A DNA stretch of 16,067 nucleotides from His2 virus: the NCBI RefSeq assembly GCF_000864585.1, contig NC_007918.1; one strand, 5' to 3'. A model generated the notes under the pieces. That model was given only the letters and a program-made list of their open reading frames with translations, was not told the DNA's origin and searched no databases. Position 1 is the stretch's first letter; the number at the start of each line of letters is the position of its first letter. The position numbers and the translations under genes are program-made. This document shows positions 7,630 through 7,764 of this stretch, piece by piece.

Positions 7630-7764
7630 TAGGTAGGCAAGGAATCGAACCTTGCTGAATACTACATTAGGGTAGTTCCGGGTAGGGGTTTGGGAATGGC
7701 GAAAAGACACAAACATGGAACTAATCGGGCAACTACCCGCCTCGTATTCACTCCTAAGCTACCT
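7630..7764 (-). ncRNA. Putative tRNA-like structured RNA (T-arm and acceptor-like stem, no D-stem, large insert in place of the anticodon loop)
   Basis: Minus strand: AGGTAG...CTACCT-A closing stem; GCAAGG-TTCGATT-CCTTGC T-arm; TGAATAC/GTATTCA and GGGTAGTT/AACTACCC nested helices; intergenic. Confidence 0.6.

Follow-up and report, generated by a model that had tools for sequence, protein, structure and literature searches.

In the punctuation model of transcript processing, RNase P and tRNase Z define the ends of messenger RNAs (mRNAs), and in animal mitochondria this generates leaderless mRNAs. The stack of acceptor stem and T-arm is the part of a transfer RNA (tRNA) that is read by RNase P, tRNase Z and the CCA-adding enzyme, and in the TMERs of murid herpesvirus 68 and the mascRNA of MALAT1 a tRNA-like module serves to bring in RNase P or tRNase Z, which frees a neighbouring RNA. 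The window analysed here is the whole genome of His2, 16,067 bp (AF191797.1, a Gammapleolipovirus of Haloarcula hispanica; 100% match). It carries a 135-nt tRNA-like element on the minus strand, at 7764-7630, inside the 189-nt gap between open reading frame (ORF) 24 and ORF23 (7625-7813). The element is intergenic, its isolated RNA folds into a non-random architecture, and its sequence is conserved in the related virus Hardyhisp2.

Like the t-element upstream of 5S ribosomal RNA (rRNA) in Haloferax volcanii (Holzle et al. 2008, 2012, as summarized in passages of PMC4326828 and PMC3296008), the His2 element is a tRNA-like fold, not a tRNA, located directly before the mature 5′ end of another RNA, and the two occur in the same host group. 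These summaries describe cutting of the Haloferax elements by tRNase Z, in general together with RNase P, whereas cleavage of the His2 element is predicted only. Compared by description only, the His2 element also differs in being viral, in preceding an mRNA and not an rRNA, and in carrying a 53-nt insert. Haloarcula 5S rRNA was located in three genomes, and the sequence upstream of the one copy that was read had no obvious adjacent T-loop. tRNA punctuation in mitochondria and the t-elements of plant mitochondria (PMC1920247) likewise place tRNA-like folds within polycistronic transcripts; those systems are organellar, whereas the His2 element lies in an archaeal DNA virus. The attP site of halovirus HF2 resembles the His2 element as a low-scoring tRNA-like sequence without a conventional tRNA fold, but in the account of PMC8707807 it has an integrase gene as its neighbour and shares an exact 57-nt match with Halorubrum tRNA genes, and neither was found for His2. 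The TMERs and mascRNA are eukaryotic (RNA polymerase III or nuclear) and have no sequence relation to the His2 element. The literature search, which did not cover the original genome paper (Bath et al. 2006), found no paper linking His2 with a tRNA-like element and no report of an archaeal DNA virus using tRNA punctuation.

A tRNA-like fold in the ORF24/ORF23 gap

Read 5′ to 3′, the element consists of AGGTAG, CTTAGGAG, TGAATAC, GAGGC, GGGTAGTT, the 53-nt insert, AACTACCC, TAATGTA, GTATTCA, GCAAGG-TTCGATT-CCTTGC, CTACCT and A, which is exactly the layout listed on the minus strand (7764-7630) in an initial annotation made from the sequence. When the isolated 135-mer was folded with RNAfold, the minimum free energy (MFE) structure and the centroid were identical (-36.2 kcal/mol) and reproduced the four perfect helices of 6, 7, 8 and 6 bp proposed there; all 27 of 27 pairs are Watson-Crick pairs, and the pair probability per helix is 0.87-0.97. 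The 6-bp closing stem leads through an 8-nt linker into a 7-bp helix, a 5/7-nt internal loop and an 8-bp helix capped by the 53-nt insert, and a 6-bp hairpin with the loop UUCGAUU is stacked directly on the closing stem. This loop, TTCGATT in the DNA, is a canonical T-loop with G-C as its closing pair, and the T stem and the acceptor-like closing stem together form a 12-bp stack. An unpaired A follows the acceptor-like stem, and CCA is not encoded. The claims of a canonical T-loop, of a 12-bp stack and of the lack of a D-stem, an anticodon loop and an encoded CCA were thus all borne out. The proposed intergenic placement agrees with the GenBank records of both His2 and Hardyhisp2, in which the only features annotated in the gap are two 9-nt repeats.

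The architecture of the element is rare. Four uninterrupted Watson-Crick helices of 6 bp or more did not occur together in the MFE structure of any of 1500 dinucleotide shuffles of the 135-mer; 1024 shuffles had no such helix, 428 had one, 43 had two and five had three, and at most 19 bp of a shuffle fell within helices of this kind, compared with 27 in the element. We conclude that the nested perfect repeats are genuine. Taken alone, the T-arm carries little weight: a hairpin like it (5-bp stem, loop TTCRANN) occurs in 36.7% of 1000 shuffled genomes, and such a hairpin together with a closing 6-bp Watson-Crick acceptor-like stem in 4.8%. The real genome contains exactly one T-arm-like hairpin across both strands, that of the element, and the arithmetic odds of TTCRANN in any given 7-nt loop are 1 in 512. 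The T-arm likeness is therefore regarded as unlikely to be accidental, yet it is not proven, and the mixed evidence indicates on balance that the element is more than chance.

A candidate processing element between middle and late genes

According to the sections of a His2 microarray study that deal with expression phases (PMC7221443), gp24 belongs to the middle phase and gp16-23 form the late cluster; the array is described there as designed on annotated genes, with gene probes only. The gap is therefore the boundary of two differently timed units. We tentatively interpret the element, as possible rather than probable, as a t-element-like module that would be cut by host tRNase Z, and perhaps by RNase P, leaving the ORF23 mRNA with a 5-nt leader. 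The closing stem and T-arm would imitate the acceptor/T-arm stack of a tRNA, making the element a viral counterpart of the haloarchaeal t-element. The transcript would come from read-through out of ORF24, or from a start in the vicinity of A7764, some 25 nt past the first copy of the repeat TAATGTAGT; host tRNase Z would cut after A7630, and RNase P before A7764 where a 5′ leader is present. These cuts would separate the middle-gene message from the late operon, leave an effectively leaderless ORF23-ORF16 mRNA (UUGCG-GUG), and release a tRNA-shaped RNA of about 135 nt that may persist. Most haloarchaeal mRNAs are leaderless. Transcription across the gap, both cleavages and any effect on ORF23 translation are inferred.

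A t-element presents its acceptor/T-arm stack beside the mature end of another RNA; in His2 the 12-bp stack stops 5 nt short of the ORF23 start. In longer contexts the acceptor stem of the His2 element is often lost (see below). Haloferax t-elements are cut in vivo by RNase P and tRNase Z in the experiments outlined in PMC4326828 and PMC3296008, and such processing in haloarchaea gives a host precedent for a processing signal. A viral t-element is the simplest mechanism that uses every observed feature, and the processing role suggested in the initial annotation is partly supported. Next to nothing is known of transcript shaping in archaeal viruses. If the element is cut by the tRNA-processing enzymes of the host, a small archaeal DNA virus would be borrowing a punctuation known from mitochondria and the haloarchaeal rRNA operon, the cut would switch from the middle gene to the late operon and produce a leaderless mRNA, and the element would be a natural compact processing cassette for haloarchaeal genetics. 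Synthetic t-elements are already in use in that field, as mentioned in PMC4326828.

Several results concerning the fold, the transcript, database searches and related viruses weigh against this interpretation. The folding energy is unremarkable (-36.2 vs -30.4 ± 3.6 kcal/mol in shuffles, z -1.62), and 17 of 200 shuffles are as good. In nine transcript contexts folded for helix probabilities, the T stem holds throughout (9/9, probability 0.94-0.99). The closing stem, helix 2 and helix 3 have probabilities of 0.87-0.98 when isolated or with flanks of up to 10 nt, 0.69-0.76 in the 417-nt context, 0.35-0.59 in the 189-nt gap, and 0.00-0.16 in contexts of 166, 170, 219 and 281 nt, one reason being that the element contains GGTAG twice and CTACC three times, so that alternative pairings compete. 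The z score of the 219-nt transcript fold is +0.41. Inverted repeats in DNA can pair on either strand, and the fold of the plus strand is no worse (-40.6 kcal/mol, z -1.81); the loop has a T-loop sequence on the minus strand only, which favours the minus-strand RNA. No SRnnRnnnTTWW promoter motif was found on the minus strand within the gap. Archaeal termination takes place at oligo-T runs, and the T-run TTCTTTTTT just upstream may stop read-through. GUG is a poor start on leaderless haloarchaeal mRNAs.

ARAGORN found 0 tRNA and 0 tmRNA (transfer-messenger RNA) genes by default, as the initial annotation had expected of tRNA scanners, and none with introns allowed or in tmRNA mode at the 70% threshold; thresholds of 80% and 60% returned poor models only. 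Rfam gave 0 matches at the gathering threshold in the whole genome and 0 at E up to 10 in 7500-7900. The canonical tRNA features of a T-arm are present (T54-T55-C56-R57-A58 loop, G53-C61 closure, stacking on the acceptor, a discriminator base). A canonical tRNA was nevertheless rejected, given the lack of a D arm and of a 7-nt anticodon loop and the negative ARAGORN default and Rfam tRNA results. The 'tRNA-Ile(aat)' model that ARAGORN drew at the 80% threshold, with a 41-nt intron and the acceptor strand AGGCGGG, was also rejected, having a mismatched 3-bp D stem and a mismatched acceptor stem.

To our knowledge, tmRNA is unknown in archaea. Its tRNA-like domain has in common with the element an acceptor stem and T-arm, a stemless D-loop, and a long helix with an insert in the place of the anticodon arm. 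Unlike tmRNA, the element has G-C in place of G3-U70 and does not encode CCA, and a tag frame was not identified in it; with the ARAGORN tmRNA search and Rfam also negative, tmRNA was rejected. Bacterial Y RNA (YrlA) was rejected for lack of an Rfam family match at the gathering threshold or at E up to 10. The topological resemblance expressed by 'tmRNA/Y-RNA-like' in the initial annotation stands, then, and membership of those classes does not. No box C/D motif or bulge-helix-bulge was seen on reading the element sequence, for which no dedicated tool was run.

Close relatives are few. In the phage collection, the three matching records are His2 itself and Hardyhisp2 under two accessions, and just these two genomes are counted in the genus in the relevant part of a 2023 survey (PMC10599561). 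The Hardyhisp2 element is 96% identical, differing at 4 of 135 positions (3.0%), a divergence resembling that of the neighbouring genes (ORF23 3/141, ORF24 8/297), which is a further point against the processing interpretation. Two of the differences lie in the internal loop (GAGGC in His2, GAAAC in Hardyhisp2); of the others, one is at position 7734 in helix 3, where His2 has A and Hardyhisp2 has G (A-U to G-U), and one at position 7654 in the T stem, where C of His2 corresponds to U of Hardyhisp2 (C-G to U-G). All 54 of 54 cells (two sequences × 27 pairs) are paired, the two altered pairs having changed on one side, both to G-U, and compensatory changes amount to 0 of 27 pairs among these two near-identical carriers. 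With the only other carrier this similar, the covariation proposed as a check in the initial annotation lends the fold no support. Both stem changes give G-U or U-G in minus-strand RNA and A-C mismatches if the plus strand is the RNA. These pairing-preserving changes may favour a minus-strand RNA, with chance odds of about 1 in 4 that make them only a hint.

Further relatives were sought by protein. Homologues of the polymerase in metagenomes numbered 113 proteins, and the closer protein relatives include polymerases 61-70% identical (P0002-P0005) and NTPases 77-82% identical (P0115-P0117). From JGI/ENA contigs, the loci of 80 of 215 confirmed relatives were kept. Among them, L004 (polymerase 58% identical) and L005 (46%) are gammapleolipovirus-like genomes with synteny, both encoding an ORF24 homologue, structural genes and a His2-like protein-primed polymerase. 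The element is absent from the syntenic gap of both. The gap of about 122 nt after the ORF24 homologue in L004 (7489-7612, plus strand) contains a different hairpin in two parts, whose perfect arms measure 14 bp and about 12 bp and which lacks a T-loop (-51.6 kcal/mol, z -7.9, 0/200 shuffles as stable), and the gap of about 85 nt in L005 is AT-rich and unstructured. A covariance model built from the two carriers detected no further copy in 83 sources (660,361 bases), its only other match being a partial one of L004 to the insert (15 bits, E 0.9). The syntenic relatives and the model search through which the initial annotation had hoped to follow the element therefore led to no genome beyond His2 and Hardyhisp2. 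A 23-mer of the element had 0 matches in IMG/VR, where a search for relatives by polymerase returned 0 with a single query and His1 only with an alignment query, and the plasmids collection had no match to the element. As far as seen in these comparisons, the element appears confined to one pair of closely related viruses. No genome branching near the two gammapleolipoviruses encodes a type B polymerase in the trees discussed in that portion of PMC10599561. The protein matches at 61-82% identity, on contigs of up to 15,960 nt, suggest further gammapleolipovirus members.

A T-arm-like hairpin with a loop identical to that of His2, CGGGG-TTCGATT-CCCCG, was observed in another of the retrieved loci, the His1-like polymerase-B contig L013 (about 480-530, minus strand). 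It is enclosed by GCGCG/CGCGC in the spacer of about 45 nt between two co-oriented ORFs, and has no clear host tRNA match (2/201 genomes at 3 mismatches).

Alternative explanations

The inverted repeats and the TAATGTAGT copies may instead work as DNA, as binding sites or as promoter or terminator elements of the middle-to-late switch, an alternative that we consider conceivable but doubtful; in one variant, the 19-bp palindrome GCAAGG-N7-CCTTGC could be an operator for one of several small CxxC proteins, of which the virus has many, with a coincidental T-loop likeness. The gap divides the middle gene from the late cluster, so control elements must lie there, and inverted repeats fold equally on both strands. 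The corresponding place in L004 has a quite different palindrome of great stability, which suggests that the site is conserved rather than the tRNA shape, and the T-arm-like hairpin alone is common by chance, given its presence in 36.7% of shuffled genomes. Dimeric DNA-binding proteins, however, do not use sites made of four nested repeats whose arms lie up to 123 nt from each other, and the nesting points to a folded single strand. The 1 in 512 odds of TTCRANN per 7-nt loop also argue against a DNA-level role, as do the two stem changes in Hardyhisp2, which retain RNA pairing and break DNA symmetry. Mere regulatory repeats would still mark where the middle-to-late switch of His2 is controlled. 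An independent small RNA that starts on its own near A7764 is unlikely. The tRNA-like frame would give it defined ends and stability, and the exposed 53-nt insert would act in trans, for example by antisense pairing with polymerase mRNA or by decoying host factors that bind tRNA. The first TAATGTAGT lies 21-29 nt upstream of A7764, a TATA-box-like distance that fits the usual position of the archaeal TATA box, but TAATGTAGT is not recurrent upstream of other genes (8 matches at up to one mismatch vs 6.2 expected). The 21-mer at 7696-7716, a region unpaired in the centroid, is complementary to polymerase mRNA 5477-5457 at 19 of 21 positions by Watson-Crick pairing and at 20 of 21 counting one G-U; this is the best match in the genome, is identical in Hardyhisp2 and is reached by 0/200 shuffles. 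One of two control gaps (6107-6237) also attains 19/21 with 0/200 shuffles, so the shuffle null is too lenient. A duplex-energy scan was not significant, the polymerase site being 7th of 902 windows at -33.5 kcal/mol (best -39.1; mean best of 26 shuffled inserts -36.9), and the gaps of L004 and L005 are without such polymerase complementarity. Processing and regulation may also be combined: a tRNA-shaped small RNA would punctuate viral transcripts through tRNase Z, RNase P and CCA addition, giving a leaderless late mRNA, and at the same time free a stable RNA that pairs through its exposed 53-nt arm with the polymerase mRNA (20/21, one G-U), shutting replication down late. We consider this combination quite improbable; if it is true, neither a tRNA-like riboregulator nor 'tRNA punctuation' would have been described in an archaeal virus before.

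Origin from a tRNA was weighed as well. A decayed tRNA gene or the relic of a tRNA-derived attachment site, without present function and comparable to the attP of halovirus HF2, has little probability. Haloviruses do carry tRNA-like attP fragments, going by the examples treated in PMC8707807. Such fragments usually retain the T-arm with the 3′ acceptor strand, and the poor intron-containing 'tRNA-Ile' with the alternative acceptor strand AGGCGGG (ARAGORN, 80% threshold) also counts for a relic. On the other hand, no integrase is annotated in His2 or Hardyhisp2, and these viruses replicate by protein priming, as stated in the part of PMC10599561 consulted on replication. The 21-mer running from the T-loop to the acceptor end of the element had 0 exact matches in genome_contigs (one genome per species, 185,579 species), and a 25-mer with up to 3 mismatches allowed had none in 201 sampled genomes of the family holding the fetched Haloarcula genomes (0/201), where a control 25-mer of the same kind from another locus was found in 2/201. 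The RNA model R1 had no match in five Haloarcula genomes, a result that is uninformative without a positive genome. Judged by these comparisons, the element is not a captured host tRNA end, and a tRNA-derived attP site was rejected for want of a host tRNA match and of an annotated integrase. Perfect pairing at 27 of 27 positions would not be expected to survive in a relic, and the stems are AU-rich like the virus (Hardyhisp2, 39.8% G+C) and unlike the host (62.7%). It is very improbable that the fold is a product of chance, or that a plus-strand small gene, the 44-codon basic ORF at 7696-7830 (MAKRHKH...), is the real feature. This ORF is open in both viruses, and the sequence around its start, GGGAATGGCGAAA, is similar to that around the polymerase start, GGGAATGGCAAAA (about 5634-5620, minus strand). 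It has no Pfam match, three of the five differences between the viruses in it are non-synonymous, and it is antisense within a block of leftward genes, with its own sequence overlapping the ORF24 end, and is unannotated in both records; the helix architecture, matched in 0/1500 shuffles, is no chance product. A motif similar to GGGAATGGCAAAA was also observed just upstream of the polymerase start in L004.

Coordinates and further genome features

The features of the element and its surroundings are listed in Table 1. Past the ORF24 stop codon the order is TAATGTAGT, TTCTTTTTT, 12 nt and the element, and the two listed copies of TAATGTAGT are the only exact ones in the genome. Pfam searches with ORF22-24, the ORF at 5645-6106 and the plus-strand ORF gave nothing above the cut-off.

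Table 1. Positions of the tRNA-like element, its parts and neighbouring features in the His2 genome
Feature	Position	Strand	Evidence and remarks
Whole tRNA-like element	7630..7764	minus	Fold; covariance model 194.6 bits in His2, 193.3 bits in Hardyhisp2
Acceptor-like stem, 5′ strand AGGTAG	7759..7764	minus	Pairs with 7631-7636; probability 0.97 in isolated RNA
8-nt single-stranded linker CTTAGGAG	7751..7758	minus	Occupies the D-arm place of a tRNA; no D stem drawable
Helix 2, 5′ strand TGAATAC	7744..7750	minus	Pairs with GTATTCA 7656-7662; 0 nt between helix 2 and T stem
Helix 3, 5′ strand GGGTAGTT	7731..7738	minus	Pairs with AACTACCC 7670-7677
53-nt insert	7678..7730	minus	Mostly unpaired in centroid; contains 21-mer 7696-7716 complementary to polymerase mRNA
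T-arm-like hairpin GCAAGG-TTCGATT-CCTTGC	7637..7655	minus	Sole T-arm-like hairpin of the genome
Acceptor-like stem, 3′ strand CTACCT, and unpaired A7630 at discriminator position	7630..7636	minus	Sequence; predicted tRNase Z cut 7630/7629
ORF24 (gp24), upstream neighbour, middle-phase gene	7814..8110	minus	Annotation; phase as given in the sections of PMC7221443 cited above
ORF23 (gp23, CxxC protein), first late-cluster gene	7484..7624	minus	Annotation; GTG start 5 nt past the element; phase from the same sections of PMC7221443
9-nt direct repeat TAATGTAGT, copy 1	7785..7793	minus	GenBank repeat_region; 21-29 nt upstream of element 5′ end
9-nt direct repeat TAATGTAGT, copy 2	7661-7669	minus	Overlaps helix 2
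T-run TTCTTTTTT	7777..7785	minus	29-39 nt past ORF24 stop codon; putative terminator, resembling archaeal oligo-T terminators

Some minor observations were made elsewhere in the genome. The haloarchaeal promoter pattern SRNNRNNNTTWW occurs 45 times genome-wide, vs 122.6 ± 11.3 in dinucleotide shuffles, and all 200 of 200 shuffles had higher counts, which is either strong depletion or a counting artefact. ORF21 (7105-7293) differs from its Hardyhisp2 counterpart at 77 of 189 nt, with 56% amino acid identity plus insertions and deletions, against 2-7% for its neighbours; sequence comparison marks it as either a local hot spot or a segment that was replaced. The terminal inverted repeats of His2 are 531 nt long and 100% complementary (1-531 / 15537-16067), where the Hardyhisp2 announcement gives 525 bp for the His2 terminal repeat. 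A sub-repeat within them, TAATGATTCTACA... (149-343 / 15737-15921), has one weaker internal copy (71%) at 7076-7103, in the gap between ORF20 and ORF21.

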